Source: an uncultured Eubacteriales bacterium
Lineage (GTDB): Bacteria > Acidobacteriota > Aminicenantia > Aminicenantales > Aminicenantaceae
Direction of reading: 5' to 3'
Assembly: GCA_964557845.1 (NCBI GenBank)
Contig: CAZLBV010000215.1
Span: 3,582 to 67,581 of the forward strand
DNA: 64,000 nucleotides
The notes under the pieces are model-generated. The model was given only the letters and a program-made list of their open reading frames with translations, did no database searches and was not told the DNA's origin. The translations under genes and the position numbers were made by a program. Shown one piece after another: positions 20,959 to 53,042 of the stretch. The first letter of the stretch is position 1. Every line of letters starts with the position of its first letter.

Positions 20959-20959
20959 A

Positions 20960-35412: not shown

Positions 35413-35853
35413 TCAGTTATAGGCTTCCATTATCTTTTTGTCTTCATTCATGAGATAATCCAGTTCTTTTCTGAATTTATCATCCCAAAAATTAAGCTTG
35501 TTATGAATTTCAAGATATTTCAGGGGAATAGGATGGGTTCCAATAACAACAGGGACTCCGTACTGAGTTTCAATGTATTCTTTGAATTGAAATAGATAGG
35601 GACAAGGTGGGTACCCGACCACCAAACCAGTGGCCAGATGAATGACTTCTGCGCCATTTTTTATCATTTCTTCTGGAACATATTCAATATTCCCCCCCGG
35701 GCATCCCCCGCAATAGGAATATCCTACGACCTCTATTTCTTCATCTTTTGGATAACGAGCAAAACCTCCGGTCCGTTCCCGGACGGAACGGAAGCATTTC
35801 CCGCCACCGCATAACTGATAGCGTCCACATATTATGATGCCGATTTTTTTCAT
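35413..35853 (-). CDS. CGGC-domain protein
   Basis: 146 aa with MKKIGIIICGRY...CGGGKC and YCGGCPGG. I recall these as the CGGC-domain family signature. Confidence 0.55.
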   Translation of the reverse strand: MKKIGIIICGRYQLCGGGKCFRSVRERTGGFARYPKDEEIEVVGYSYCGGCPGGNIEYVPEEMIKNGAEVIHLATGLVVGYPPCPYLFQFKEYIETQYGVPVVIGTHPIPLKYLEIHNKLNFWDDKFRKELDYLMNEDKKIMEAYN

Positions 35854-35874
35854 TTTATTTCCTATTATTATTAA

Positions 35875-36681
35875 TTAATTTTTTCCGGTAGATTCCAAGA
35901 TCCTTTCAGCGACTTCGAGAAAAGCCTTGGCTGTTTCTGACTCGGCAGTATCTTCTAAGAACGATTTGCCAATGTCGCCGAGGATTACGATCTGAGGATC
36001 AATGGGAATTCTTCCCAGAAAAGGAACACCCAATTCGCCAGCGGCTGTTTCGCCTCCGCCCTGTTTAAAAAGGTCGATCTTTTTACCACAATGGGGGCAG
36101 GTCAATCCGCTCATGTTTTCTATGATTCCATACACCTGTAAATTCAATTTGCGGGCAAAGGCGACTGCCTTTCTTGAATCCATAAGAGAAACCTCTTGTG
36201 GGGTTGTAACCACAACTGCGCCGCTAGCAGGAATCAACTGGGCTACTGAAAGAGGTTCATCTCCTGTGCCTGGAGGCGAGTCGATAATCAGCCAATCAAG
36301 GTTTCCCCAATCAACGTCTCCAAGAAACTGCTGGATGGCTTTCATCTTCATAGGCCCCCGCCAAATTACGGGGAGATCAGGGCTTTCGAGTAAAAAAGCC
36401 ATAGATACGAGCTTTAAATTCTTATCCACCTGAACAGGTTTAATTCCGTTAGGTGAAACATCAAGCCGTTTCGTCTCAACGCCCAGCATTTTTGCCAGGT
36501 TGGGCCCATGAATATCTACGTCTAATAATCCAACTTCTAATCCTTTTTTTTCAAAGGCATAAGCGAGGTTGGCAGCTACTGTGCTTTTCCCAACTCCTCC
36601 TTTTCCACTGAAAACAAGAAGTCGGTTTTTGATTTTTTCTAAAGCTTTCTTGATTTTTTCTGATTCATTTTCGTTTGGCAT
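35875..36681 (-). CDS. Mrp/NBP35/ApbC-family Fe-S cluster carrier ATPase
   Basis: 268 aa with Walker [18 protein letters not shown] and the conserved CPHCG cluster-binding motif. Its ATG overlaps the stop of the upstream NifX-like gene (ATGA-type overlap at 36679-36683). Confidence 0.85.
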
Positions 36682-37400
36682 TATTCTTCTCTTTCCATGA
36701 AGTTTTCAAGGACATCTTTTACCTTTCCTGAGACTCCTGTGATCATTTTAATTCCGGATTCCTGCAACACTTTATCTGCATTGGGTCCAAAGTCTCCGGT
36801 CATAACAAGTGATGGATTTTTTTCGGCAATAAATTGGGCTGCTTTAATTCCAGCGCCATGAGCAGTATCTATATATGGATTGGAGATCGCTTCAACCTGA
36901 TCTGAACCAGGTGTCAAAAATAAGAAATATTGGGCTCTTCCGAATTTCGGATCAACCTCGGAATCAATGGTGTTTCCCAGTGCAGTAATACATATCTTTG
37001 TACGGGTATCATGAGACAGGGATTGATGTTCGTGATGTTTAGGATGTCCTTGATTCATATGGCGTTCGCTCCCGTGATCGCAAAGGTCTTCTCCAGGTTT
37101 CAGTTGGCCTAGCCTATATTTTTCGATAACTTCGTCGATCGGGCCTTGGACACCTATGATCGTTTGAATATTCTTTTTTCTAAACAATTCCTGGGCACGG
37201 GGGCCCATCCCACCGGTAATGATGAGATTGACCCCTCGCGCACTTAAAAATTCTGGTAGAAACCCTGGTTGGTGACCCGGATTATCAATTTCTTCTTTTT
37301 GGGAGATCCGGTTATCTTCTATGTCAACTATTGTATACTTCGAACACCGCCCAAAATGGGCGGCAACAAAACCATTCTCTGTAGAGACTGCAATTTTCAT
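36681..37400 (-). CDS. tandem fusion of two dinitrogenase FeMo-cofactor-binding (NifX/NafY/NifB-C-like) domains joined by a His-rich linker
   Basis: 239 aa. Domain 1 starts [29 protein letters not shown]. The His-rich linker reads [18 protein letters not shown]. Domain 2 starts [27 protein letters not shown]. Confidence 0.7.
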
Positions 37401-37460
37401 TCAAACCTCTTTATCATGATTCAGGGTATACTTTTTATCTTAGAAATTCAACATCAATAT

Positions 37461-37805
37461 TTATTTTGCTTTTTCTTCTTTTTCAATTTTACTGATTCTT
37501 TCTGAGAGATCTTTTAGCTCCTTTTCCATTAGGTCTTTTTCCTGTTTCAAATATCCGAGTTCTTCTTCTTGTGACATCGAAGGGGCACCTGCTCCATAGG
37601 GGTACCCTGGATAACCATAACCATAGCCATAAGGATTATATCCTCCCATTGGGTATCCCCAACCGTAACCTCTTCCGTATCCGCGTCCAAATCCGTATGA
37701 CATATAACCCGGGTAAGTATATCCTGCGCAAAATCCTCTTGCACGGCCTGTCATAGATCCGAAGCCCCAAGGTCCTGTTCTATCGCCTCCTGGCATTTTC
37801 TTCAC
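37461..37805 (-). CDS. small Gly/Tyr-rich low-complexity protein with a C-terminal coiled coil (DUF5320-like)
   Basis: 114 aa. MPGGDRTGPWGFGSMTGRARGFCAGY is followed by GYG/YGY low-complexity repeats and then EEELGYLKQEKDLMEKELKDLSERISKIEKE. This matches my recollection of the DUF5320 architecture, which is commonly adjacent to NifX-like/Mrp genes. Confidence 0.5.
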   Translation of the reverse strand: MKKMPGGDRTGPWGFGSMTGRARGFCAGYTYPGYMSYGFGRGYGRGYGWGYPMGGYNPYGYGYGYPGYPYGAGAPSMSQEEELGYLKQEKDLMEKELKDLSERISKIEKEEKAK

Positions 37806-37810
37806 CTCCT

Positions 37811-38257
37811 TTATTGGCAGTTTTTACATAGACCGATAAATTCAATATTATGGTCCAATATCTTAAAAGAAAATTTAGCTTCCAATTTTTTTTCTGCTTT
37901 ATTGATAAATTCTAATTCTTCTTCAACGAATTCTCTGTAATCAATTATTTTGCCGCAGTTGGAACAGATCAAATGGTGATGATGATCAGATTTTTTTCCT
38001 GATCTGAATTCATATCTATTCTGTCCATCACCGATAGAAATTGTTTGTATCATTCCTGTTCGAGACAGTAAATCTAGTGTCCGGTATACTGTGGTAAGCC
38101 CCAGGCCAGGATAGATTTTTATCAATTCGCTATAGATGTCCTTGGCACTTAAATGCTTATTTGTCCGGATGAGCAGATCTACGATCGCCTGACGGGGTGC
38201 TGTCCACCTGCATACCTGTCCTCTGAACCGATGATGCCATTTGTTTGCTTTATACAA
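37811..38257 (-). CDS. fur: Fur-family metalloregulator (Fur/Zur/PerR)
   Basis: 148 aa with an N-terminal winged helix, HHHHLIC-x-CG and a C-terminal CxxC (LCKNCQ). Confidence 0.8.
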   Translation of the reverse strand: MYKANKWHHRFRGQVCRWTAPRQAIVDLLIRTNKHLSAKDIYSELIKIYPGLGLTTVYRTLDLLSRTGMIQTISIGDGQNRYEFRSGKKSDHHHHLICSNCGKIIDYREFVEEELEFINKAEKKLEAKFSFKILDHNIEFIGLCKNCQ

Positions 38258-38272
38258 TTTAATCTTTCCTTT

Positions 38273-38294
38273 TGATAATGAAAACCATTATCAT
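38273..38294. promoter_or_regulatory. Fur box-like operator (TGATAATGAAAACCATTATCAT) in the fur/queF divergent promoter region
   Basis: About 16 of 19 positions match the classical GATAATGATAATCATTATC palindrome. It lies 16-37 nt upstream of the fur start codon (38257, minus strand). Confidence 0.55.
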
Positions 38295-38488
38295 TAACAA
38301 ATTACCTTAGGTACACTTATTTGTCAAGTTATAATTTTACCCAAACCCCTATTTACTTGTTTTATTTCCAATCTGCAAATTTTCATTTAAAATAATATCC
38401 TGGATCAGGATCATATAGTTGAAGGTAAAATCCACCTGTTGTAAAAGATTGTCTTCATCCTTGGGTTATTATATACTTTTCAAAAGGA

Positions 38489-38979: not shown

Positions 38980-39912
38980 ATGACAAAATATAAAAAGATC
39001 GGATTGAGCGATGTTTTGATGTTATTAGTTGTAGTTGTATGGTCAGTTAATTTTCTGTTTGTGAAGCAATCATTGTTGGAACTCCCTCCACTTATATTCA
39101 ATGGGATCAGATTGATGGTGGCAGCTATAACGTTGCTGATATTTGCAGCTGCCGCTGGAGAGAATTTTAAGGTTAAAAAAAGAGACATATGGAAAATATT
39201 CGTTCTTGGAATCATAGGGAATACTTTTTACCAGATATTTTTCATCCTTGGCTTTGATTTGACCACAGCCTCCAATACATCTGTCATTTTAGCTATGACC
39301 CCTGTTTTTGTGGCTTTGCTGAGTACGATGATAAGACAAGAAATACTCCACTGGGCTGTTTGGATAGGAATTTTTCTTTCCTTTGTTGGTTTGTATCTTG
39401 TTATTGCGGGAAAATCAGGCACTTTTCAGGTTTCCTGGGAGTACATCCGGGGCGATGTGATCGTATTCTCTGGAGTATTTTTTTGGGCTTTTTATACCGT
39501 ATTTTCCAAGCCGATGCTGGAGAGAATATCTCCCCTGAAATGGACGGCTCTCACTATGTCTGCGGGAGCATTAATGTTCTTTTTAGTTTCCCTGAATAAA
39601 ATAATTGTTTTTGACTTCCAGGGAGTATCTCTGGGGACCTGGATAAAGTTGGGATATTCCGGTGTTTTCGCATTGGGCGTGGGCTATTTTATATGGTATT
39701 TGTCAGTAAAAAGAATTGGAAGCAGTAAGACATCTGTTTACTCCAATATGGTTCCTGTTTTTACTATTATTTTGTCCTATTTTTTTTTAAAAGAATCTGT
39801 TTCTTTCATCCAAGCTTTAGGTGCAGTCACGATCCTTACCGGAGTTTATCTTACCAGAGCTGGCGATAGATGGTTTGAACGAAAGAAAAAACTGCCGGAA
39901 TATCCATATTAA
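38980..39912 (+). CDS. DMT-superfamily (EamA-like) transporter
   Basis: 310 aa with 10 TM helices and a duplicated EamA-like architecture. Confidence 0.75.
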   Translation: MTKYKKIGLSDVLMLLVVVVWSVNFLFVKQSLLELPPLIFNGIRLMVAAITLLIFAAAAGENFKVKKRDIWKIFVLGIIGNTFYQIFFILGFDLTTASNTSVILAMTPVFVALLSTMIRQEILHWAVWIGIFLSFVGLYLVIAGKSGTFQVSWEYIRGDVIVFSGVFFWAFYTVFSKPMLERISPLKWTALTMSAGALMFFLVSLNKIIVFDFQGVSLGTWIKLGYSGVFALGVGYFIWYLSVKRIGSSKTSVYSNMVPVFTIILSYFFLKESVSFIQALGAVTILTGVYLTRAGDRWFERKKKLPEYPY

Positions 39913-41675
39913 ATCAACTTTTTTCTTATGATGATCTTTGCTAAGCGTTTGCGGATTTTTTGTAATTTCTGCGCATTATGGGAGAATGAGTAGGCATTCT
40001 TTATGAGATTTTTCATTTCAGATATTGCCTTCCTTCTGAGCCCGTTTTTCTCCAGGATGATCATATATTCATAATCCTCCATTCCCTCTCGTATCTGCTT
40101 AAGCCTGATGCTGGTTATGGGAATGTGAGTTTTTCCACCGATCTTATCAGGACTGCCCGGATAGAACAGGGTCCCGTCCCCATTGCCTCCGAAGTAATAT
40201 TGATCTTTCCACGGATTGCCTTCGGTGTAAGCATAGATAGTGCTGAAATACAGCTCTCCATAGATGTCATAAAAGAAAGTCATCCATGACATGATCCTGT
40301 TCATGACTGCAGGATGATCGATCATGTAGGAAGGATAATCGGATTCACATCGGTCATTTGGAGGCATGCCGGTGCAGCCATGGCTCATGCAGGATTGATA
40401 CCACCAGAGCTCTTTTCCCTGATAGAGGATATGGTTGTAGCTTTTCCTTAGGTTTTTATTGTAGACATTGGAATAACACAGCTTGAAGGGTTTGCCATGA
40501 ACACAGTTAACAATTGGAACCCAGATATCGATCTTATCTTTTACACCATATTTCCGGGCCTCCTGAATATCGGTGGTAACCAATGTGCGGAGGGAAGGAT
40601 CCGCCCGGTGGATCAAAGCTGCCCGGTTTATGATCAAGGTATAATCTTCAGCTGTCTGAGGCTCATCAAAGGAATAGTCAAATAAAATATCAAACCATCC
40701 TTTGTTTTTAAAATGGGTTGAAAAATCTTTCCAAAAATCAATTTTTTGGAACTCTGATTTTCCTTTTTCTGGGATCTCGGCACTCGTCATTTTTGCATTT
40801 TGCAAACCGAAGGGGAGGTCTTTGCCTTCTAAAAATGGTCGCCAGGTACGGTCGAACCGGGTGAAATCGATCGGCATAGAACCATAGATCGACCAGTCCT
40901 CATGAAATACACTACTGAGGGTTAACCGGTGCATAAGGGCAGCGTCCAGGTACTTCATGGATAAAGGAATGATATCTTCATAATGGTTATCTGGATCATT
41001 AAAGTGTCCGAAGAGGACATCCCATCCGGAAAACCCAAACGCAGTAGGCAGACTGGAGATCGAAGGCAGAGTGAAGTCCCATACCGTTACTTTAAATTCA
41101 ACCGGAATAACTGTATTCTGTTCAAGACATATGGAAATCTCTCCTTTATATAAACCTGAAGGGGTATCAGGAGGGATGAAAAGATCGACCCAGATCGCTC
41201 TGTTTTCATGAGCAGGAATATCGATCGGAAAGGCATTCCTCATCTCTCTGCTGTGGACATCTTTTCTGGGGATCAGGGCATCGGGCCACCAACCTCTAGC
41301 TCCATCATAGTTGGATTTTTTATTTACTTTGATGAGTTCTTCCCGGTAGATTTTGATGTATTTAGCTGAGATCGAAGCAGCCCCATCCAGCCGTCTCGGA
41401 ATCATATCAAGGATTTTTATTGGTCCTTCCACTGCGATCTGGAAAGATTCATATTCATTTTTGGCAGCATAGAGCTGGATCGTTTTCTTTTTTCCCACGG
41501 CTTGATGGGGGCGGATTTTTTTAGTTGAAGGGAAAAGGCCGTAAGTGACTGATTTGTTTTGGCCGTAAATATTGGATTGCACATTTAAAAAAACAATTAG
41601 GAAAAAACTAATAAATGTACACCAAAAGATCTTTTTGGCTGACCGGGATCGGGAGAAATTATCTTTAGTATTCAA
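39909..41675 (-). CDS. secreted protein, probable DUF4091-type glycoside-hydrolase-like protein
   Basis: 588 aa with a signal anchor and a large soluble domain. FDEPQ and GGNGDGTLFYPG resemble DUF4091/GH123-like families. Family assignment is tentative. Confidence 0.4.
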   Translation of the reverse strand: MNTKDNFSRSRSAKKIFWCTFISFFLIVFLNVQSNIYGQNKSVTYGLFPSTKKIRPHQAVGKKKTIQLYAAKNEYESFQIAVEGPIKILDMIPRRLDGAASISAKYIKIYREELIKVNKKSNYDGARGWWPDALIPRKDVHSREMRNAFPIDIPAHENRAIWVDLFIPPDTPSGLYKGEISICLEQNTVIPVEFKVTVWDFTLPSISSLPTAFGFSGWDVLFGHFNDPDNHYEDIIPLSMKYLDAALMHRLTLSSVFHEDWSIYGSMPIDFTRFDRTWRPFLEGKDLPFGLQNAKMTSAEIPEKGKSEFQKIDFWKDFSTHFKNKGWFDILFDYSFDEPQTAEDYTLIINRAALIHRADPSLRTLVTTDIQEARKYGVKDKIDIWVPIVNCVHGKPFKLCYSNVYNKNLRKSYNHILYQGKELWWYQSCMSHGCTGMPPNDRCESDYPSYMIDHPAVMNRIMSWMTFFYDIYGELYFSTIYAYTEGNPWKDQYYFGGNGDGTLFYPGSPDKIGGKTHIPITSIRLKQIREGMEDYEYMIILEKNGLRRKAISEMKNLIKNAYSFSHNAQKLQKIRKRLAKIIIRKKLI

Positions 41676-43642
41676 AACCCTCTCTCAGGAAAAATAGTGT
41701 ACAAATTACGGGGTTTAAAGGTTTGGATGCGGCTGTATATATTTTTAGCTTCCTGTGTCTGTCCTGTCCGGGTGTAGCAGAGAGCTAAATGGCCCAAGAT
41801 GCGGAATCTGACTTTTGGATTTTTTTCTATTTGAAGGGCAGCTTCGAAACAAAAGGCGCCTTTTTGATAGTCTCTGCTCTTAACGAAAGCATTTCCCTGG
41901 GATATAAGCTCTGGTACACCGGGAACAGAAGGATGGCTACGCGAATAAAATTCTTCTAGAAAATCTTTGAATTCCAGGGAATAAAGGTGGAAAAATTCAA
42001 GGGGTCTTTTGATCAATTTTATGGATTTATCCCTTTCTTCAGGTAAAAGAATGGGATCCCCGGATCTTAGCCTTTCCTGATAAGAAAACAGGGGCTGGAG
42101 CAGGCCTTTATCGATTGTGCCGGTAAAAATATAAAACCTTCGCTCAGGAAAGCAGGAGAAAAGTTCTTGATTATTCTTACCCTGATCCCTTGCGTAGATA
42201 ATATCATTATTCAATTCAGGATCGTTGTAAATAAACCCTGACCTCCACCAATATCCGGGGAAATATTCCATGGGATGATAGAGAAAATTCATAATAATTA
42301 AAGCATTATCCAATGAAAGTTCTCTCAAGTCTTTATGAATTTGTGATGTGGTTCCCTGGAAATCTTTATCGATATGGTAATAATACCAGTTCTGATCCTC
42401 TGGATGGATCCATTTGGGAAAATGAATGAAAAAAGCATGGATAGTTAAAAGAATTAATAGGAATATGCCGACTCTTTGAAGATTGGCGGTCGAAAGGTGT
42501 AAATTGCATCTTTTCAGAAGCTGGGGAATTTCCCTTATTCCTCTGGCACTAAGTAGAACGAATAAAGGCAAGGTCTCAAAGAAAAGCCGTGCGCCCAAAA
42601 GGATCAAGGCTGCCCAGTAAAAGAAGTTTCCCATAAAAAAACTTAAGATTCCGGCTCCCAGCAACAGATCCTTTTTTCTATATTCAGGCCGGATTTTTCT
42701 GATCAACAAAAGAGGAATTAGAGCTAAGAAAGATGAGAGCGGCCAGCCGAAAAGATGCTGGTTTATTTCTGATAAATTTTCGATGGTGTTGGTCACACCC
42801 AACATAGGTGTATGGGGGATGTCGGTAAAACCTGTTTTGTTAAATCCGACACCATGGGTCTCTCCATATCGGACAGTATACCCCATACGAAAGGGATGTC
42901 CGTTGGTGGCTTGATTATACAGCATGAGAATGGATAAGCAAATAACAGCCGCAATGATTGCCGCCGCCATATTTTTAAATTTTTTCCTTCCACAAGGAAT
43001 AGATCGCACTAGAAAATAGATCAAAAAAGGAAAGGAGAACAGAATGGTTGTATAAGGCCGAATAAGAAAAGCTGCTCCCCATCCTATTCCGGTCAGCAGT
43101 CCGTGGGTGATAGATGGGGACCGGAGCGATCGGAAAAGGAACAACAGAAAAATTAAAAGGAAAAACATGCAGGATGTGTGAGAAAGAAAAGTTGAAGACA
43201 TCAGAAGAAGCCATATAGATAATGATCCCAGTGCTGCGGTAAGTATCCCGGTTTTACGGTCGTAGATCTCTGTCCCCACCAAGTAGAAAAGTAGAATCGA
43301 TACAAATCCCAAAAAAGGATTGACCAACCAAGGTATGCTGAGAAATAAAAATGGTACAAGGAGCAATGGGAATCCAGGTGGGTATTGGCTGTACCATTTG
43401 CCGTTATTTATGATATGCGGAAAATCAAAAGATTCCTTGCTGCAGGGAGAATCAACATAAAAATGACCGGATTTAAAGATCTTGGCTTGAAAGAGGTAAC
43501 CGATTTCATCATGGATATGGGGAATATGATCAAGAACAAAATATGAGAATAATCCTGAAAATAGAAAGACAAAGAGTGCTGCAGCCAAAACATTTTTGGG
43601 GAATCCCGGTTTCTCTATATCGGTTTTTTTTGATTTAGTCAC
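41672..43642 (-). CDS. GT-C-fold membrane glycosyltransferase (ArnT/PMT family-like) with C-terminal TPR repeats
   Basis: 656 aa. It has many TM helices in the first ~400 aa, followed by a soluble C-terminal region with TPR-like repeats (GNAFVKSRDYQKGAFCFEAALQI...GHLALCYTRTGQTQEAKNIYSRI). Confidence 0.5.
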   Translation of the reverse strand: MTKSKKTDIEKPGFPKNVLAAALFVFLFSGLFSYFVLDHIPHIHDEIGYLFQAKIFKSGHFYVDSPCSKESFDFPHIINNGKWYSQYPPGFPLLLVPFLFLSIPWLVNPFLGFVSILLFYLVGTEIYDRKTGILTAALGSLSIWLLLMSSTFLSHTSCMFFLLIFLLFLFRSLRSPSITHGLLTGIGWGAAFLIRPYTTILFSFPFLIYFLVRSIPCGRKKFKNMAAAIIAAVICLSILMLYNQATNGHPFRMGYTVRYGETHGVGFNKTGFTDIPHTPMLGVTNTIENLSEINQHLFGWPLSSFLALIPLLLIRKIRPEYRKKDLLLGAGILSFFMGNFFYWAALILLGARLFFETLPLFVLLSARGIREIPQLLKRCNLHLSTANLQRVGIFLLILLTIHAFFIHFPKWIHPEDQNWYYYHIDKDFQGTTSQIHKDLRELSLDNALIIMNFLYHPMEYFPGYWWRSGFIYNDPELNNDIIYARDQGKNNQELFSCFPERRFYIFTGTIDKGLLQPLFSYQERLRSGDPILLPEERDKSIKLIKRPLEFFHLYSLEFKDFLEEFYSRSHPSVPGVPELISQGNAFVKSRDYQKGAFCFEAALQIEKNPKVRFRILGHLALCYTRTGQTQEAKNIYSRIQTFKPRNLYTIFPERGF

Positions 43643-44413
43643 AGTTTTTAACAGTTCTCCAGGACTTGTTTATAAAGCTCTTTTAATCTTTCCAACTGAT
43701 TTATGATGTTGTATTCTCTTTCGATCTCGAAAACAAGAAAATCTTTACGCATGTTTTTTTTTATCCGTTATGCCCCTTCATCAATTCCTCTAATCATATC
43801 AGAAAAAGTATATAACATATGCCCTGAACCAAGTCAAAGAGGTGCTGTAGAGGTACTGTAGATAGGGGCTAACATAAGGAGGGTTTTACTGATGCTTTGC
43901 GATAAAACACTAAATATTAAGGCAGTCTGTTTGAATTAATCTTTTAATAAAAATTATGTATACTTTAATAAAACCAAGAGGAGCTTTCCTTCGAGAAATT
44001 GACATCCAGGGCAAAGAGATTAATTTTACATGGCGGCCTGAGAGCATGTGATCTTAACAGCTATTGGCCAGGCCGGGCCCCAACTGTAAAACCGGTTTGA
44101 GAATTTAGGATAGGATTGGAGTTCTTCAGACAGGCAGACGATCTGAATGGTTTCCATTCTGGCATCCGTAATGTGAAGTCTATTTTCTTCCTCACTCACT
44201 TTCCCAGGAAAAATCAGTAGCTTTTCCAGGTATTTCCTGTTTTGGAGTGGGGATCTCTCCCCGGCCGATAAAAGATCTTGCTTTGCCCACCAGACATGCG
44301 TTTCTCGGTCACGCCTTTGCTTATTTTATGGTTTGCCATTTATAAAATAGCATGAAGCATAAATCCAGCGCATTTATTAACGAATTCAACACCGTTTATT
44401 TCAATAAACATAA

Positions 44414-45157
44414 CTATGTCCTTTTGAATCTATCTATCGTTTGTTCAGAAATAAATACTGGGTTTGTTCTTCGCAACTGAGGCATTCCCAAAATAATTTC
44501 TGGTACTTGTTCATATATCCCAAAGAGAAAAAAACCTCTATTCTCTAAGTATATTTCGAATTTTTCAAAGGCCACAAATTTTTTATTGTTTGGGTTCATA
44601 CCGGCCTCAACCTGTACGAAATCAATCTTTTGTTGACTTAACATTTCTTGTGCACCTTTAAGAACCTCAAAATCATATCCCTCGGTGTCTATTTTTAAGA
44701 ACCCAATTTTTTTAATTTTTTGTCTAGAACAAAAATCGTCAATGGTGTCTATTTCAACATTTTCTATTTGTGTATTCGTCGTAGAGTAATTCACTATTGG
44801 GTTAAGAGAACTAAATAATGATTCTGCCGCTACATAAATATTGCTCCAGCCTTTTGAACTCCCGAGTGCCTTCTTAAAGCAATGCACATTAACAAAACTA
44901 ATTACATTTCTTTCAAGCTCAGAAAAAGTTGTACTTACTGGCTCAAAACAATAAATCTGGGATCCGGGAAAACCAGTTAAATATTGTTTCGTCGTTTGGC
45001 CAATGTTTGCACCAACATCAAAAATTATGTCCGGTACGTAACCCGGAAGCAAAATTTTAATATCATTTAGTAAATCGGTTCCATGCGGAATTATTTTATA
45101 TATATGTAGATGGGTCAACCGCTCTATCAATTTTTTAATTTTTCCTTTTAAGGTCAT
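44414..45157 (-). CDS. FkbM-family SAM-dependent methyltransferase
   Basis: 247 aa with FDVGANIGQTT (motif I) and KIDTEGYDFEVLKGA, typical of FkbM. Confidence 0.7.
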   Translation of the reverse strand: MTLKGKIKKLIERLTHLHIYKIIPHGTDLLNDIKILLPGYVPDIIFDVGANIGQTTKQYLTGFPGSQIYCFEPVSTTFSELERNVISFVNVHCFKKALGSSKGWSNIYVAAESLFSSLNPIVNYSTTNTQIENVEIDTIDDFCSRQKIKKIGFLKIDTEGYDFEVLKGAQEMLSQQKIDFVQVEAGMNPNNKKFVAFEKFEIYLENRGFFLFGIYEQVPEIILGMPQLRRTNPVFISEQTIDRFKRT

Positions 45158-45172
45158 TTTTTAAAATTTTTT

Positions 45173-45841
45173 CTAAATTTTAAAACAATTATCGTTCCGG
45201 TAAAATATTGATGTACACCAACAATAATTATTTATTGGTCCTAAACCTTTAAAATCAATGAATTTAAAACCATTATGCTTAAGAAACCGGATTCCTTCTT
45301 GATAGGCATCTCTTTCACTGTTGTCTAAAATAACGATCCCACTATTAGTAAGAGCTCCAAGAGAATTCTTTATGCAATTAACTCTATCCCGGCCATCGAT
45401 GACAACAATTTCAAACTTTTTTTGGTATTTCTTGATCACTTCAGCATATCCCCCATCGACTAATTCACAGAATAGGTATTCTACATTTGGAGGAATTTTG
45501 TTCTTCATTATATTATACCACTCAATATCATGCTCACACGCTTTGACCTCAGTCACGCGAACACTCCACCATAGAGTAGAATTTCCACTTCCGTATTCAA
45601 ATACTTTCATATTTAAATTCACTTTTTTTTCTAGAAAATAAATTGCAGAGTAAGTAAACCAGGATAAAGGACAGCCATTTTTATCCACAGGTAATCCTAC
45701 TATGCGGCTTTTTAACCAACCAATATTTTCAAAGTAATGACGCAGCCGGTAAAGAGATATAATCTTCATTCCCGTTCTGTTCTTTTTTATCATGCCGAAA
45801 ATCGCTTTTCTTATCAAATGCCTCATTGAAAATGATCCCAA
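45173..45841 (-). CDS. class I SAM-dependent methyltransferase-like protein
   Basis: 222 aa with a glycine-rich motif-I-like VFEYGSGNST and an acidic motif II (VVIDG). Confidence 0.5.
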   Translation of the reverse strand: MGSFSMRHLIRKAIFGMIKKNRTGMKIISLYRLRHYFENIGWLKSRIVGLPVDKNGCPLSWFTYSAIYFLEKKVNLNMKVFEYGSGNSTLWWSVRVTEVKACEHDIEWYNIMKNKIPPNVEYLFCELVDGGYAEVIKKYQKKFEIVVIDGRDRVNCIKNSLGALTNSGIVILDNSERDAYQEGIRFLKHNGFKFIDFKGLGPINNYCWCTSIFYRNDNCFKI

Positions 45842-47217
45842 ATTTTAGCTCTAAACAGAAACAATCTTAACGGAAAAATAAAAGCTTTGCTAATTTTTAT
45901 GGCAAGATTTCTACTTCTTGAATAAAAGAACAGGAATAAATAAGAAGAAGCTGCATATGATAACAAAGTGGCAACTGCAGATCCTATTCCCCCAAACTTA
46001 GGTATTAGAATAAAATTAAGAAGTACATTTAATAAGGCCCCTCCTCCATGAATCATAAGTTGAAAATGCAATGCGTTCTCTATTAAAACCCATTTATCAA
46101 TAATGGCCTTCATGAACATGAATATCCCGGCCCATATATGAATAATCAGAATGGGAGAGGTTCTAGTATATGCTTCACCGTACAAGAAAGGTATCCCAGG
46201 GACCGCCAAAAAGCTTGTTATTACTGCTACAAAAAACGCCAAAGCAAATAGAATGTCAAAAATTTGTTGCAATCTTTTATCATACTCTGAGAGGTTAGTT
46301 TTATTCAGTTCAATCAACCTAGGATAAACAGAGATTGCAATAGTAGTTGGAATGAAATACCAAACTTCAGAAAAAATGACCGCCACAGAATAAATACCAA
46401 CCTCATATGCATCAGTCATCCAGCGAAGCATGATTTGATCCACTCTGAGATTAACTAATGCCAGAAATCCAGAAAGAAAGATGATCCAGGACTGGCTTAA
46501 CAATTCCTTTGCCTTGGAAGGCAGAGCTTTCCATTGAAAAACCGAAAATCCTTTATAGCGATACATGAAAACAAGCAGCAGCGCGGTTAGAAAAAATTCC
46601 AAACTGGATGCTGCGGCAATGGCGATAACTGTTGCTCCTAAGAAAACAAGTAATACTTTTATAATTGCTGCAGCAATAAAGGCCGTGCTCTTGGCCAACA
46701 CCGTATACATTGATTGAACTTGAGACTGAAACCATAAGTCTATTGTCTCAAAGGGCCTTGCAAAAAGACTAAAACCAATGATCAAAAGAACCCCGAACTC
46801 AATGTCTCTAGTATCATGAACGAATTTAGCCACGCATAATATTATCAGGAATGCGAGCAAACTGCCTACAAACTTTAGAAAAAGGGTGGTTCCCAATAGC
46901 TTCTCTTTTTCATCGGGATGCCTAACAATATCTCGTACTACTAGTCCGCTAAGACCTAAATAGACAAATACTGCCATAAACGAGACCAAAGAAAGAGCAT
47001 AACTCAATATACCGAAATTCTCAGGTCCTAAATGCCTGGCAACGAATATATTAACTATTAATCCAATTCCAAGCGTTAATATTTTTTCTGAAATGAGCCA
47101 ACCTGCGTTGGTAAGAATTTTTCTTTGATCTTCGTGTTTCCTAATGTATTCCCTTATAAAAGAAGGAAGCAACTTTAGAATTATAGAGGGATAAAATCTA
47201 GAATTTTTAACTATCAT
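45823..47217 (-). CDS. wzx: Wzx-type polysaccharide/O-antigen flippase (MOP superfamily)
   Basis: 464 aa with about 12-14 TM helices and the typical polysaccharide-biosynthesis-protein N-terminus (NAGWLISEKILTLGIGLIVNIFVARHLGPENFG). Confidence 0.7.
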   Translation of the reverse strand: MIVKNSRFYPSIILKLLPSFIREYIRKHEDQRKILTNAGWLISEKILTLGIGLIVNIFVARHLGPENFGILSYALSLVSFMAVFVYLGLSGLVVRDIVRHPDEKEKLLGTTLFLKFVGSLLAFLIILCVAKFVHDTRDIEFGVLLIIGFSLFARPFETIDLWFQSQVQSMYTVLAKSTAFIAAAIIKVLLVFLGATVIAIAAASSLEFFLTALLLVFMYRYKGFSVFQWKALPSKAKELLSQSWIIFLSGFLALVNLRVDQIMLRWMTDAYEVGIYSVAVIFSEVWYFIPTTIAISVYPRLIELNKTNLSEYDKRLQQIFDILFALAFFVAVITSFLAVPGIPFLYGEAYTRTSPILIIHIWAGIFMFMKAIIDKWVLIENALHFQLMIHGGGALLNVLLNFILIPKFGGIGSAVATLLSYAASSYLFLFFYSRSRNLAIKISKAFIFPLRLFLFRAKIWDHFQ

Positions 47218-47751
47218 TCACATTATCAATATGAATTATTATGGATTACTTATAAAAAATATTATATTAGCAATTTTAGGTATTTTTCACAATTCTTGTC
47301 AACCAAATGTCAAACAAAGTCCCTGCGTTGTCATGCTTTGTTTTGTCTTATTTTGTCAATTTTTTGATCGGTGGATGCATGATTTTAATTTAGTTAATGA
47401 ATAATGCTTTTTTTAGGTATCCTACAAATACTTTAAAAAATTTATACATGGAAGAATTTCAGGGATTTGGCTTCAATAGAAAGCCTGGCAAGTACTGCAA
47501 GTGTAGCAAAACGCAGCAATGTTCCACCAAGCATAGAAATACTGCTCCATTTAACTCCGGAGATGGTTTTAGATTTCAGATCAACGGCCATTATAGTATT
47601 AGATGAGTGTTTCCGTATATTGCTGGTGATCGAGAAGCATGGCTGTTAATAATAACAATGGTGTTTAAAAATCCTTCTGGATTATATTTCAGTTGAAAGA
47701 CATCCCAATTATTTAATTTATTATTATATAGGACAGGGATAATAACTCTCA

Positions 47752-48903
47752 TTATCCCTTTAATATGTCCTTAACAGCTTCAATCACTTCTTCAACAACA
47801 TCATCGGTTAACTTCGGAGAAAGAGGAATGGAGACGGTTCTCTCAGAGATCCATTCCGCGTTGGGAAAGTCACCAGATCGGTAGCCATAGACTTTTTGAT
47901 AATAAGGATGAAGATGGGGGGCGATATAGTGAACGCCGGTGCCTACATTTTTTCGGTGCATTTTATCCAGAAATTGGTCCCGGCTCATATTCATCCGCTC
48001 GATATCTAGGATTAAAGTATACAGATGATACGCATGCCGGGTGCCTGACTCTGCAGGTGCTGGTGTAAAAACAGGGAGGTCTTGAAATGCATAGTTGTAT
48101 TTTTCCCATATCTGTTTCCGTCTTTCCCAATATTTTTCAACTCTCGGTAACTGATGTATACCGAGGGCTGCCTGAATATCCATCATGTTATTCTTAAAGC
48201 CCGCACAAACAACTTGATAGTGTTTATAGCCCTCATCGCTGAAGCGTTTCCAAGCATCTTTCGACATGCCATGGAGGGCTAGAACCTTTATTTGATCAGC
48301 GTAATCCTCCTTGTTGGTGATAATCATTCCTTCTTCACCTGTAATAATGTTTTTAGTGACATAAAAACTGAAACAGCCCAGATCGCCGAAAGTTCCGGTC
48401 TTTTTTCCATGATACTCACTTTCGATGGCATGAGCGCAATCTTCGATGACTTTAAGCTTTTTTTAGCAGCAATTTCCACGATCTTATCCATTTCGCAGGG
48501 CCTGCCGGCAAAATGAACCGGGATGATGGCTTTGGTTTTAGATTAGATCTTTTTCATGATGTTGTCAGGCTCTATATTCATGGTCTGTTGGTTACAGTCG
48601 GCCAGGACAGGTTTACCTCCGGCGTGGATAACAGCATTGGCTGTGGATGCAAAGGTCACAGCTGGAATGATTATTTCGTCTCCTGGTCGAAGCCCTATGG
48701 CTAGCATGGAAAGATGGAGGGCAGCTGTGCAGGAGTTTACAGCCAGGGCAAAACAGGTCCCTTTATACTGTTGAACATCTCTTCGAATCGATGCACTTTC
48801 GGGTCGGTCCCCAACCATCCGGAACGAAGAGAGAATCAACTACTTCATCGATCTCCGCCTGTTCGATCAAAGGGCTTCCGAAAACGAGGAAATTATCGCG
48901 CAT
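47752..48903 (-). pseudogene. decayed DegT/DnrJ/EryC1/StrS-family sugar aminotransferase (ArnB/WecE-like): at least 3 frameshifts plus 1 in-frame stop
   Basis: Reverse-strand translation from ATG (complement of 48901-48903) gives MRDNFLVFGSPLIEQAEIDEVVDSL. The canonical continuation RSGWLGTDPKVHRFEEMFNS is found only in a second frame, after an extra CT in a TCTCTC repeat near 48825-48835. YKGTCFALAVNSCTAALH...PGDEIIIPAVTF...MKKI is in a third frame, after a T-run deletion. An in-frame TAA lies at the complement of 48543-48545. A further frameshift lies in a poly-A(7) tract at the complement of 48458-48464, where AAKK-SLKSS should read AAKKKLKVIEDCAHAIE. The C-terminal part (47752-48327) is intact. 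Confidence 0.75.
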
Positions 48904-49322
48904 TCATTATCTCTTTTTTTTAGTTTTATCCCCTGTTTCCATTCTGCTCAACACATCTGAAAAATTTATAGCACATGGCCTGACTGAAGTCAAAGTTATT
49001 AGAGGTAAAACTTATTTTAATGCTGCTGCCTGGACATGTGATTCACTTGATAATTTCGAAATAAAGAGTGAAAATTTCAGGAGCATGTGGTATCAGAATA
49101 AAATCAAAGAATTAGGACAATTAAGCGAAGGAGTATACAGATGTTGAACAGAGAAAAACTAATAGAATGTGCAGCCTAAATGGAATGTGGAAATGCTATC
49201 GTTCACATGCGACGGAGTTGCCTTCTACTTGATTTGGAAAATATAAATACACAAAGGCCTGCAAAGACAAGAACAGCGAAATTTCAGGAAATACTATCTC
49301 AATTGAAACTGATACTATGTTT

Positions 49323-52300
49323 TTAAAATCCGATTATCAGGGTTTTCTCTTCTCGTTTCTTTCCGTTTTTGTTCTCCCAGGTCACGATCGATTTGGCTGC
49401 TTCATCTAGATTCGAGCTTCTGTAAAGCATAACTGACATAGTTGAATGTTGTTCGAGATTAAGATACCCCTGGAATTCATAAGTATCGGCACCGGTTTCA
49501 AGAAGTGTCATATCAAAGCTCAATTGTTTTGTTTCGTCAAAAACCCTAATATTCAGTTCTTCTCTTACTGAAGGATCCGCTCCCGCCAGCCGATCGATGA
49601 TATTTATAAACAAAAGGCGTCCTTCCTCTGTAGGGATGACCTCCATTTCCGCCAGCTGTGTGGAGACACTTTCAGTAGATGTCATAATGGAAAATTCTTG
49701 CAAGTCTTTTCCGCCCTTTCCATCTTCGACTTGAAGAGAGACCAGATTGTAACCGGCTGCAGAATCCTCCGGTTTCCATAAAAGCAAACGTCTGGAGGTG
49801 TCGAGTTGCATTCCTTCCGGGGCATTAACTAAAGAATAGACAAGGCCATCCTTGTCATAATCTTTTGCCTTAAATTTGTATCTATACATGGTTCCTGCCT
49901 GGGCCTCGCACTCAGGTTCAGATATAAAGAAAGGATGATTGTTCATATCACGTGTTCTGTATCTTACTTTCCTGAAATTGCTTATTTCACTTTCGGAGCC
50001 GTCCTGAGCAATTGAGGTAATACCCAATTTGTAAACACGCCCGGGTGTTATCATGGTGTTGTCCAACTCGATCTCAGTAATAGGGGGAATGTTTATACAG
50101 TCGGTGAGAACTTTTGCTTCAATATCATCGCTGTAATAAACGCGAATAAAATCTATATTACTTGTATCCCCTATTTCAGCATCAAAGACAATGGTATCTT
50201 TTTTCACATTGCATTTTCCCATCCGGGGTTGTTCTAGGGGGGTGGCTCCAAAATTAATTTTTTCTGGGAAATAAGCCCTACGCATTGCATGTGAAGAATC
50301 TATGATCTCAGTATAGATGTAACCGTTTTTAAGTGTTAGATTCTCTGAAGGAGACCAGGTGAATTCCAACTGTCCGTCATTTTCATAAGTGCTTCCTATT
50401 GGTATCCCGTTGAATTTTTTGTTGTTTTGGTTGAAGTAGAAATTGACCTTGGCCTTATCATCAGGGTCGTAAGCCTTAGCTATTAATTTGTACTGAGAGC
50501 CACCCAGTTTGACGATCCTTCTGGGGATAATATTGGGTGAAATATTTCCTGAAGCAAAATGGATGGTTGCTTCTCCCACATCATCTGTGTTTCTTACTTT
50601 TACTTCCCATTGGCCCGGAAGGGGATTTCTTATCATGAACCCTGCTGTCTGGTTGGCTTCATCATAGCGGTACAAGAAGTTTTCGTTTTCTTCAGGCAGG
50701 TTGACAGCTGGATCGATAACTTTGCCATTAGGAAGGATAAGAATAACATCCGGTGTTTTGTTTTGTCCCTGAACTGCAAAAATTATTCCCGGAGATTTTT
50801 TAGGGACAGAAAAATAGTGATTTCGGTCTAAAAAGTAATTAGAAACATTCTCAGTCTCAAATCCCTTTAAGGTATAAGTGGGAGAAACAGCTTTTCCATC
50901 ACTCGATTCCCAGAGAGGAGGAACATGGAATTCGAGTGGAAAGAGCCCCAATAATTTCCACCAGGACCAGAAGCCGGTGTCATCGATGTAAATATAACAT
51001 TCAGCCACATCGATCCTATCTTTATCTTTGGTTGCCCACTGCAGCCATTCCGGAATGTCGAAACCAACCGTCCCTAAAAAGGAACCACTCCACCAGTAAA
51101 AAGGTTTGTTCACCCAGAATACAGATAAAGTTCCGTCACCTTTGGCCAGCCCGTACATCAGAGTTAAATGCAGGTTGCCTGATAAGCCCACATTTGTCCA
51201 AATTTCGACAGAGCCATGCATACAGTCGTAACCGAGGGTTTCACCGTAGCCATACAGGGAATAATAGCCGCTCAGGTCAAGGGTGCCACTACCCCCGAAT
51301 TCTATGATCGAGCCGAAATTTTCAATCCTTTCGAAAACACTGAAGGCAATTCCCAGGGTTAATGACATGGGAACATTTTTCGGCTCATCCATGTTAATAT
51401 TGATGTCTTGAAGATAGACAGGGATGTCGTCGATTTGCAAATTAAGATCTTCTCCAAATCCTGAGAAGTGCTCCAGCCAGTTTTCCTTGATCCTTATGCT
51501 GCCCCCGAAGGTTGGCATTTCCTGAATGACTACTTTTTCAGCAGTAAGCTCAAAGGACTTATTGATGGTATCGATGAAACCATATACTCCCTGTAATTCC
51601 ATCAGATCGCCGATCTTAAAATCAGAGTAGTAGATATCTCCAATAAATCCCATGTCTTTGGCCTTAGGTCCTTTTATCTCCATTCTTTGGATATCGCAAT
51701 AGCTGCCTTCTCCGAACATTTCTGGATTGAGGGTTGTTTTTATGCTTAAAGCCACTCCAAATGGGTCGGTTAAAAATTCAATATATTTGACCTCCACGTC
51801 TGTGCCAAAAAGTTCAAGCGGCGAATCATAACTGAATCCATCGATCTTACAGTCAAAGGCATCGATCCTGTGGTTGCCAGCGATGAGGACATTGCTTCCT
51901 ATCATGAACAAGTTCGTTCCGGTGACTTTAAGTGTACCATTAAACTGGATATAGGCTTCGGGTTCGGTTTGCCCGGTTACAGTCCCGGAGATTGAGACCA
52001 TGGGTTTAGTGTAATCTCGGTCAAGAGAATCAATGTCAGTGCTTGATTTGCTGTCCGGTTGATAAAACGCCAGGCGGACATCCCCGCTGGCTGAAAAGGA
52101 ATTTTGATATTTAGTATAAATATCGGCTATTATGCGGATATTGCCGATATCCATGGTGGTGTAGTAAACCTCTATCTTGGTATTTTGGCCTGCTTCAACG
52201 ACCGCGGTCTGTGATGCCGGAGGAACCCAACCTCTGGCACTGGTGAAATCAACGATATATGTACCTGGAGGTAACTCAACCGCTTTGTTGGAATTATAAG

Positions 52301-53042
52301 TGCCTGTTCGGCCTTGGATCCGCCACTTTGCTCCTGCCCTGGTAGCTTGAATTGGATTAATAACCACTTGTAAAAAAGCGGCCAATCTGACATAGGTGGC
52401 GGTGCAAGTGGTGGTCTGACCAGACAAAGACTGGACCCATCTATTGTTTGGTTTGGCCCATCCGTTGATATCCTTGAATTCAACATAGTATTCTCCAGGT
52501 GGAACATCAGTCTCTGTATCACCGCTGTTATACCAGGTTGTTGTACTCACGCGCCGCCATTGTGCTCCCGCATCCACAGCTTCCTGGGGAGTGATGGTGA
52601 CTTGTATGGAGCCATATTGGACATAGGTACCGGTTATCACTACCCGGTCCCAAGGGATATAGACGGTTTGGTTTTCCGGTTTTATCCAGCCTGCGATATC
52701 TTTAAACTCGATCTCCATATATATTTCGGGATCCATATAAACGGTATCCACGTGTCCGCTGTCCAGCCAGGGGCTCCAGTCTCCTGAAGGCAGACGCCTG
52801 GTGCGCCACTGAGCACCTGCGGTTCGCGCTCCGGATGGCTCGATTATAACCTGAAGTTCTGGATCCCCAGCACTGTGAATCAATGTGCCCTTCATCGGAT
52901 CCGGCGGCGGCGATCCATCAGATGAAGCCTGGGTTAAAAATGATGAAAAAATGAATGTAACAAAAAAAATAAACAATAAAATCATTGTTTTTTTAATGTG
53001 GTCTAAATAAAACTTATGAAAAAAATGAGTAGAATAAAACAT
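49323..53042 (-). CDS. large secreted/surface protein with three tandem ~85-aa N-terminal repeats and a C-terminal dystroglycan-type cadherin-like (putative Ig) domain
   Basis: 1239-aa ORF. The alternative start is the Met at 52985 (MILLFIFFVTFIFSSFLTQASS, signal peptide). The tandem-repeat pattern is GAQWR...SG...PGEY.VEFKDI.GW.KP, seen three times between residues ~70 and 300. Near the C-terminus, FKAKDYDKDGLVYSLVNAPEGMQLD...LLLWKP resembles CADG/He_PIG domains. Confidence 0.6.
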   Translation of the reverse strand: MFYSTHFFHKFYLDHIKKTMILLFIFFVTFIFSSFLTQASSDGSPPPDPMKGTLIHSAGDPELQVIIEPSGARTAGAQWRTRRLPSGDWSPWLDSGHVDTVYMDPEIYMEIEFKDIAGWIKPENQTVYIPWDRVVITGTYVQYGSIQVTITPQEAVDAGAQWRRVSTTTWYNSGDTETDVPPGEYYVEFKDINGWAKPNNRWVQSLSGQTTTCTATYVRLAAFLQVVINPIQATRAGAKWRIQGRTGTYNSNKAVELPPGTYIVDFTSARGWVPPASQTAVVEAGQNTKIEVYYTTMDIGNIRIIADIYTKYQNSFSASGDVRLAFYQPDSKSSTDIDSLDRDYTKPMVSISGTVTGQTEPEAYIQFNGTLKVTGTNLFMIGSNVLIAGNHRIDAFDCKIDGFSYDSPLELFGTDVEVKYIEFLTDPFGVALSIKTTLNPEMFGEGSYCDIQRMEIKGPKAKDMGFIGDIYYSDFKIGDLMELQGVYGFIDTINKSFELTAEKVVIQEMPTFGGSIRIKENWLEHFSGFGEDLNLQIDDIPVYLQDININMDEPKNVPMSLTLGIAFSVFERIENFGSIIEFGGSGTLDLSGYYSLYGYGETLGYDCMHGSVEIWTNVGLSGNLHLTLMYGLAKGDGTLSVFWVNKPFYWWSGSFLGTVGFDIPEWLQWATKDKDRIDVAECYIYIDDTGFWSWWKLLGLFPLEFHVPPLWESSDGKAVSPTYTLKGFETENVSNYFLDRNHYFSVPKKSPGIIFAVQGQNKTPDVILILPNGKVIDPAVNLPEENENFLYRYDEANQTAGFMIRNPLPGQWEVKVRNTDDVGEATIHFASGNISPNIIPRRIVKLGGSQYKLIAKAYDPDDKAKVNFYFNQNNKKFNGIPIGSTYENDGQLEFTWSPSENLTLKNGYIYTEIIDSSHAMRRAYFPEKINFGATPLEQPRMGKCNVKKDTIVFDAEIGDTSNIDFIRVYYSDDIEAKVLTDCINIPPITEIELDNTMITPGRVYKLGITSIAQDGSESEISNFRKVRYRTRDMNNHPFFISEPECEAQAGTMYRYKFKAKDYDKDGLVYSLVNAPEGMQLDTSRRLLLWKPEDSAAGYNLVSLQVEDGKGGKDLQEFSIMTSTESVSTQLAEMEVIPTEEGRLLFINIIDRLAGADPSVREELNIRVFDETKQLSFDMTLLETGADTYEFQGYLNLEQHSTMSVMLYRSSNLDEAAKSIVTWENKNGKKREEKTLIIGF

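Follow-up and report, generated by a model that had tools for sequence, protein, structure and literature searches.

A degraded DegT/ArnB-like aminotransferase gene in a surface-polysaccharide locus of an uncultured Aminicenantes bacterium, a probable remnant of operon turnover

Among proteins that are both characterised and structurally solved, the best match to the gene considered here is ArnB (PmrH; UDP-4-amino-4-deoxy-L-arabinose:2-oxoglutarate aminotransferase; PDB 1MDO, 4OCA, 8SNG). The two agree in fold type, in a length of about 383 aa, and in the motifs WxxTGPK, SF..KN (the lysine motif) and EGG, but the homologues of the gene sit in a Wzx-dependent polysaccharide operon and not in arnBCADTEF, and the copy treated here is dead. 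PseC (UDP-4-amino-4,6-dideoxy-N-acetyl-beta-L-altrosamine transaminase) belongs to the same family, PF01041, and some homologues in the databases are named after it, but the score lies under the PseC cutoff and there are no pseudaminic-acid genes near the gene. Contingency genes, in turn, have one long tract, and their frame, which is intact apart from it, can be restored by slippage. The gene resembles the simple-sequence-repeat contingency loci of Campylobacter, Haemophilus, Neisseria and Helicobacter in being a glycan gene with two lesions at short repeats, and differs from them in that its tracts are short, one of its four lesions is a stop codon, and variant alleles are not seen. Also the loss of a sugar-modifying gene by point mutation is well known, and the present case is a further example in an uncultured phylum that involves no new mechanism. 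In the O-antigen cluster of Salmonella Paratyphi A, rfbE has been inactivated by point mutation, with a change from O9 to O2 (PMC11078800). There as here, a sugar-modifying gene in a surface-glycan locus has been killed by point mutations while its neighbours are intact, with a consequent or, in the present case, presumed change of the sugar; the difference is that the phenotype has been demonstrated in Paratyphi A, whereas here the organism is uncultured and the locus full of relics. A literature search found no publication on this locus.

The gene lies in a stretch of 64,000 nucleotides, which is called the window throughout and was analysed as a whole. The gene and its four lesions are as follows, with the lesions called by nucleotide alignment to L006, L007 and L008, the contigs that carry the three best-matching intact homologues:

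47752..48903, minus strand: DegT/ArnB-like sugar aminotransferase pseudogene, defined by three-frame translation and by alignment to intact orthologues
48828-48834, minus strand: lesion 1, an insertion of 2 nt (TC), TCTCTCT in the window against TCTCT in 3/3 orthologues (alignment columns 177-178)
48771-48772 (TT on the plus strand), minus strand: lesion 2, a loss of 1 nt, by which a coding-strand AAA became AA (alignment column 239)
48543-48545, minus strand: lesion 3, a nonsense TAA at codon 120, S120* (alignment columns 467-469)
48458-48464 (T7 on the plus strand), minus strand: lesion 4, a loss of 1 nt at an A7 tract (alignment column 553)

In the three-frame translation of 48903..47752, the DegT pieces run through frames 0, 2, 1 and again 0: the first piece in frame 0 is MRDNFLVFGSPLIEQAEIDEVVDSL, the piece in frame 2 is RSGWLGTDPKVHRFEEMF, the piece in frame 1 is QYKGT...IMKKI*SKTKAIIPVHFAGRPCEMDKIVEIAAK, and the last one, in frame 0, is KLKVIEDCAH...DILKG*. 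The N- and C-terminal parts are in one frame because the indels add up to zero (+2-1-1). Correction of the three indels leaves the TAA as the sole stop, and repair of this stop as well gives a product of 383 aa. In a collection of 5.8 billion proteins, this rebuilt protein has intact counterparts of 383 aa with 84% identity over 100% of the length, and is 72-76% identical to homologues of many phyla, among them Omnitrophota, Aminicenantes, Nitrospirae and one archaeon of the Halobacteriota; the ArnB-like subfamily is very highly conserved across phyla. The rebuilt product matches PF01041 proteins over its full length, and the gene calls of JGI themselves place PF01041 on DegT fragments of 91 aa and 191 aa, but as it stands the gene is no working PF01041 reading frame, with its three frameshifts, one TAA and altered near-invariant residues. 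The lysine motif SFYVTKNI, which aligns with that of ArnB, is still present in the pseudogene, but the longest ORF, of 191 aa, begins past it, and therefore no DegT fragment can be expected to work as an enzyme. In the rest of the 64-kb window, tblastn found no second DegT-family match. Disabling lesions against intact orthologues recur in the assemblies, and neither 5.8 billion proteins nor JGI metagenome contigs yielded an intact allele above 84% identity, which is the picture of a bacterial pseudogene. Judged from its sequence, 48903..47752 thus reads as a genuine dead DegT-family gene that is closest to ArnB and an ordinary pseudogene.

The pseudogene is 82-83% identical to L006, L007 and L008 at the nucleotide level, and by blastn the window from 49001 to 47751 matches L006 from 1599 to 2846. 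Lesion 1, in the context GAT-TCTCT[CT]-TCG, shifts the frame past codon 25, and the native ATG then yields only 46 aa, which is the 46-aa ORF listed at 48763..48903 on the minus strand. At lesion 2, the window has ATGTTC-AACAG where the orthologues have ATGTTCAAACAG or ATGTTCAAGCAG, a run of three A only. The codon of lesion 3 is TCA in L006, ACA in L008 and ACG in L007, encoding Ser or Thr, and a single C-to-A substitution leads from TCA to TAA. At lesion 4, the window has GCTAAAAAAAGCTT and L006 has GCTAAAAACAAGCTT; a C is retained at this site in the orthologues, which read AAAAACAAG (Lys-Asn-Lys), and also AAAAACCAC and ACAAACAAG. The missing base is most likely the C of an ancestral A5-C-A2, and because the orthologues keep this C, the A7 tract can be regarded as the product of its deletion, with no A8 before it. 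The sequence A AAA AAA G might suggest a programmed frameshift, but this reading was rejected, as the other three lesions cannot be bypassed in this way.

A first-pass annotation of the window, made from the sequence alone, had described a broken DegT/ArnB-like aminotransferase with recognisable pieces in three frames, and the gene is indeed found exactly at 48903..47752 of the minus strand. It had also placed four breaks and proposed a comparison with orthologous loci; the comparison has now been run, L006, L007 and L008 are intact, and all four breaks have been recovered where they had been placed. Where it described an A7/A8 tract that lost one A, the base lost is most likely the C of A5-C-A2, and its view that the gene decayed exclusively at simple-sequence repeats is not supported, as the TAA is a substitution, lesion 2 is located in a run of three A, and the A7 was itself most likely made by a deletion.

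Not only the frame has suffered. In an alignment with 120 intact homologues, 129 columns are at least 98% conserved, and the pseudogene is altered at four of them (G33D, M82V, G191E and L329P), against a mean of 0.99 deviations per homologue; the only sequence with more deviations than the pseudogene is an N-terminally truncated gene call. G33D, G191E and L329P are radical substitutions, the first in WLGTGPK and the second in the near-invariant GEGG after the lysine motif SFYVTKNI. Private nonsynonymous and synonymous changes on the window branch amount to 27/40 = 0.68, and with 0.51-0.71 in intact lineages this count does not clearly set the pseudogene apart. The argument for relaxed selection is therefore carried only by which substitutions occurred and by the lesions that disable the gene. 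We read this as indicating that most of the window branch evolved under selection and that the inactivation is recent if measured by the 17% that separate the gene from its nearest known orthologue; a back-of-envelope estimate would put it at about ten substitutions' worth. Sliding-window identity may hint at some mosaicism of alleles, but the signal is too noisy to be read.

As to the enzyme that the gene once encoded, the reconstruction gives ArnB (NF008658) as the first NCBIfam match with 352.8 bits, below the cutoff of 631, and PseC (TIGR03588) as the second with 344.6 bits, below the cutoff of 423.5, so that it qualifies as neither. The solved structure closest to P0001, an orthologue with 84% identity, is ArnB 1MDO (E 1.6e-86, end to end). 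Equivalents of ArnA or ArnC were not found beside the pseudogene, near which there is a GT-C gene of the PMT_2 type, and the surroundings are thus not those of an arn operon. The pseudogene can be described as a former ArnB-like, PLP-dependent nucleotide-sugar aminotransferase to which, from the family matches, no specific substrate is assignable. For 48 homologues with at least 60% identity in GTDB genomes, the neighbouring genes were clustered, and these neighbours include GT4 glycosyltransferases in 24 of the 48 loci, Wzx in 20, SAM methyltransferases in 14, FemAB-like proteins and LbH acetyltransferases in 10 each, and AsnB in 6. A co-directional order recurs in many phyla, with DegT followed by an LbH or FemAB-like acyltransferase, a SAM methyltransferase, a Wzx of the Polysacc_synt_3 type, and GT4 or AsnB. 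These recurrent neighbours suggest that an N-acylated amino sugar is the contribution of the enzyme, and that the operon makes and exports a unit with this sugar for a Wzx-dependent polysaccharide. For the organism of the window, no amino sugar is to be predicted in the surface glycan from its DegT gene.

The surroundings of the pseudogene hold the following further features:

49152..49226, plus strand: DUF4440 relic, the last 25 codons (tblastn, 60% over 25 aa, E 1e-6), intact in L006
48904..49001, minus strand: DegT upstream region with TTGACT, a 17-nt spacer, TATAAA and the 5' leader, with about 80% identity to the corresponding stretch of intact orthologues
47481..47591, minus strand: remains of the cognate Wzx (Polysacc_synt_3), codons 1 to 37, MAVDLKSKTISGVKWSSISMLGGTLLRFATLAVLARL (tblastn)
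44414..47217, minus strand: low-GC cassette with another Wzx, an unknown gene and an FkbM methyltransferase (Pfam, NCBIfam), all three ORFs intact
44038..44284, minus strand: relics of a GH29 alpha-L-fucosidase, two fragments (tblastn to L007 residues 141-169 and 311-362)
43728..43839, minus strand: second DegT promoter and leader with the first 8 codons (blastn to L006 1605-1718)
39909..43642, minus strand: PMT_2/TPR GT-C glycosyltransferase (656 aa) and GH123-like protein (588 aa) (Pfam)

Read along the minus strand, the order is HePIG, the DUF4440 stub, the promoter and the DegT pseudogene, the Wzx relic, the low-GC cassette, the GH29 fragments, the second DegT 5' copy, the PMT_2/TPR and GH123-like genes, and EamA. 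The site upstream of the pseudogene is skipped by a promoter consensus scan; its second hexamer ends in A. The Wzx relic is 48-60% identical to residues 1-36 of the flippases that adjoin DegT genes of the ArnB-like subfamily in L009, L010, L011, L015 and L038, of which that of L010 matches Polysacc_synt_3 at E 2.4e-86; past codon 37 there is unrelated sequence, with a stop at 47442. The Wzx of the cassette has 464 aa and is only 21-24% identical to the cognate type (tblastn), the unknown protein of the cassette is a 222-aa ORF (217 aa in the JGI call), and the GC content of the cassette is 0.335-0.363 versus 0.448 in the pseudogene and 0.404 in the window. The two GH29 fragments have 73-76% identity (E 4e-18 and 3e-9) to the L007 gene, which itself matches PF01120 at E 8e-53. 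In the second DegT 5' copy, the ATG at 43752 opens MRKDFLVF as in L006, and the copy now is a 34-codon ORF with its stop at 43650-43648, a few bases ahead of the GTG at 43642 with which the PMT_2/TPR gene starts. The two promoter copies escape a repeat search because of indels, and the pair was confirmed by local alignment with shuffles (score 69 versus a shuffle mean of 17, z = 22).

The organism is most likely a member of the Aminicenantes, the name borne by matches to its oxaloacetate decarboxylase beta subunit (98% and 86-88%) and to its EamA transporter. L006, with 75-83% nucleotide identity, is the sole close relative that was found. Its order is a HePIG-like C-terminus, DUF4440, a GH29 3' relic, the DegT promoter, the intact DegT, EamA, QueF and FUR, with EamA 143 bp past the DegT stop. 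It thus bears the same GH29 3' relic upstream of its DegT, and the PMT_2/TPR and GH123-like genes of the window lie between a DegT promoter and EamA, a place taken in L006 by the body of DegT. In deeper Aminicenantes, an EamA-anchored search found no DegT after EamA but queE, queD, queC and V-ATPase genes, and the zone beyond EamA is therefore lineage-specific and variable. By this comparison, the lineage once had two DegT copies of the ArnB-like subfamily at the locus, both of which are dead now, one cut down to 8 codons and the other riddled with point lesions. The locus carries at least four relics besides DegT, i.e. at least five gene remnants, and is rearranged and cassette-swapped. The surrounding cluster, which had been taken to be otherwise intact, is so only with regard to the Wzx, FkbM methyltransferase and PMT_2 ORFs; remnants of other genes are found in both gaps between them, as well as in that upstream of the pseudogene.

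Quite likely, a polysaccharide operon was turned over and the gene stayed behind as a fixed pseudogene. Of the options that the first-pass annotation had offered, recent pseudogenisation is the one that agrees with the four lesions, the radical substitutions and the identity of the assemblies. Starting from the observed lesions, relics, synteny and assembly identity, the course of events may be reconstructed as follows. An ancestral DegT-Wzx operon would have been broken through cassette turnover, in which the cognate flippase was severed after codon 37, where now the low-GC cassette with a different Wzx, an unknown gene and FkbM follows, and in which the second DegT copy would have shrunk to its promoter and 8 codons, with the PMT_2 and GH123 genes replacing its body. 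With the flippase and other partners replaced, selection on the aminotransferase would have lapsed, and the gene may then have accumulated its three frameshifts and its nonsense codon, along with a few radical substitutions. The order could also have been the reverse, with a first null mutation in DegT making the old module dispensable. In L006, DegT is intact although no glycan genes adjoin it, so that the enzyme can apparently persist without local partners, which weakens the step in which the gene is orphaned by their loss. The amino sugar would probably be absent from the present glycan. The locus is a small, clean example of the turnover of polysaccharide loci, with the remnants of a flippase, a fucosidase and a duplicate DegT beside freshly inserted cassettes. 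Of some mild interest are how densely the relics lie, the reuse of the DegT promoter module, and the very high conservation of the ArnB-like subfamily across phyla.

The pseudogene might also be kept for a role of its DNA or RNA, either as leader or regulatory RNA for the downstream cassette or with the DegT 5' module as an anchor for recombination. The promoter-like upstream region is still about 80% conserved in comparison to the intact orthologues, and as a second promoter with leader and 8 codons fronts PMT_2, the module has been reused or has selectively survived at least once. However, the promoter is no better conserved than one would expect if the gene died recently, a strong promoter-like site at 47302..47273 (TTGACA and TAAAAT, 18 nt apart) belongs to the cassette itself, a terminator-like hairpin lies within the Wzx relic at 47562..47545, and an Rfam scan of the whole window matched no family, all of which makes such a retention improbable. 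Somewhat less doubtful, but still rather improbable, is the idea that the module of DegT promoter, leader and first codons serves as a reusable junction for the exchange of glycan cassettes in this Aminicenantes lineage. Two copies of the module are located within 5 kb, one heading the dead DegT and the other the PMT_2 and GH123 genes, and the second one, with exactly 8 DegT codons, may have been kept as the expression front end (promoter and 34-codon upstream ORF) of these newly acquired genes. If this was true, promoter capture and modular replacement would be seen here at one moment of their course in an uncultured phylum, and the pseudogene would be a by-product.

Much less probable than such a role, and very unlikely, is an error of assembly or of homopolymer sequencing, the third option of the first-pass annotation, by which the true gene would be intact and functional. 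The sequence does come from metagenome assemblies, and short runs (TCTCTCT and A7) are involved in two of the four lesions, but the TAA is a base substitution, another lesion is a 2-nt insertion, and near-invariant residues are radically changed alongside the indels. Moreover, the JGI assemblies 3300001335, 3300077563 and 3300077522 are 100% identical to the window across their overlaps, together span the whole pseudogene, and are 100% identical over 47267-48940; as the samples may share one site or reads, this is reproducibility across assemblies and not proof of independent populations. The first of them is a 159-kb contig that is identical to the window over 21.4 kb, one more JGI contig holds the identical last 171 codons of the pseudogene, a contig of 20-50 kb with the 191-aa fragment was taken to carry the same allele, and a Logan assembly of SRR2986055 is identical to the window over the adjacent cassette. 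Among 5.8 billion proteins there is no intact DegT allele above 84% identity; a scan of JGI metagenome contigs with the rebuilt protein gave intact homologues of at most 84% identity for all of its best 80 matches, among which the fragmented copies of the window itself did not rank, the best match in GTDB genomes, which do not include this species, has 74%, and the 90%-identity clusters with the DegT fragments of the window have the same broken allele as their sole members. The stronger argument, stronger than the identity of the assemblies, is the internal control. With thresholds of at least 7 nt for A/T homopolymers, 6 nt for G/C homopolymers and three units for dinucleotide repeats, the 44 intact ORFs of the window contain 67 homopolymers (46 tracts of 7 nt and 19 of 8-9 nt) and 95 dinucleotide repeats with not a single frame break, and the other genes of the window that were scanned have full-length domain matches. 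It is not credible that error or general slippage should strike one gene of 1.15 kb three times and spare about 50 kb of coding sequence, and the TAA could not arise in this way at all. In annotation, the gene should therefore be marked as a pseudogene and not be repaired as an assembly error.

The least probable explanation, to which next to no weight can be given, is that of a phase-variable contingency gene, in which slippage at the A7 or the TC run toggles the aminotransferase within the population: although two of the lesions coincide with repeats, A7 and (TC)3.5, and genes for glycan modification are a classic phase-variable class, three indels and a stop would have to revert together and slippage cannot remove a stop, the tracts are short, with equal or longer ones being common in the intact genes of the window, the A7 arose by loss of the C from A5-C-A2 and bears no sign of an older hypermutable tract, no length variant is seen in any assembly and no intact allele in the databases, and G33D, G191E and L329P, of which G191E lies in the motif after the Schiff-base lysine (TKNI..GEGG, by alignment to ArnB), would persist if the gene were switched 'ON'. 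The toggling of a single tract does not leave behind four independent lesions with a nonsense substitution among them, and as far as can be judged from the sequence, phase variation cannot restore the DegT function. The tract length is identical in all assemblies compared, although consensus assemblies can mask minority variants; such minority variants of the tract length in the reads would change nothing functionally.

The ArnB-like DegT subfamily, to which the sugar aminotransferase pseudogene in the window belongs, retains 66-76% protein identity between very distant lineages (loci L009-L168, which hold its homologues). These lineages include Omnitrophota, Anaerolineae, Aminicenantes and Actinomycetota, the CPR groups Harrisonbacteria and Saccharibacteria, and among the archaea Methanoperedens and Halobacteriota, and the gene is usually found in one recurring operon with an acyltransferase, a methyltransferase, Wzx and a GT4 glycosyltransferase. 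This high identity across lineages, together with the recurring operon, suggests that this is a very constrained module which has been spread widely by horizontal transfer.

Further features of the window are the following:
19146-21709, (-), three overlapping ORFs: PRK-like kinase, NTP-transferase and GT2
35823-38336, block of FUR, DUF5320, Nitro_FeMo-Co, ParA/CbiA Fe-S ATPase and CGGC genes, also in L006 and L175
39909-41675, (-), GH123-like protein gene, translationally overlapped with the PMT_2/TPR glycosyltransferase gene
43648-43839, (-), second copy of the DegT 5' end, comprising promoter, leader and codons 1 to 8, joined to unrelated sequence
45173-45841, (-), 222-aa ORF (217 aa in the JGI call) between Wzx and the FkbM methyltransferase
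49323-53042, (-), 1239-aa protein whose sole domain match, to He_PIG (putative Ig), is weak

By its fusion to unrelated sequence, the second copy of the DegT 5' region gives rise to a 34-codon ORF, MRKDFLVFEIEREYNIINQLERLKELYKQVLENC, the stop codon of which lies a few bases upstream of the GTG codon with which the PMT_2/TPR glycosyltransferase gene starts. The copy may represent a promoter capture, or it may serve as an upstream ORF for the new PMT_2/TPR gene. The overlap of this GT-C transferase with a glycoside hydrolase is an unusual pairing; in the GH123-like protein, the catalytic-domain match is limited to profile positions 137-323.

For the comparison of loci, the FUR-to-CGGC block served as synteny anchor. 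It adjoins QueF and EamA, and this arrangement is kept across Aminicenantes, in the window as well as in L006, the contig of the nearest relative with an intact DegT, and in L175.

The 222-aa ORF of the low-GC cassette has no match in Pfam or NCBIfam, and a variant that is at least 90% identical is present on an ENA contig. The 1239-aa protein is the sole member of its own 90% cluster. A region homologous to its C-terminus lies at 335-1018 of L006, where only a 76-aa ORF has been called, and this counterpart may be fragmentary or cut by the contig end. It was ruled out that the three overlapping ORFs are one frameshifted gene, as they are separate and each domain-complete, and their overlaps probably reflect over-long start-codon choices.
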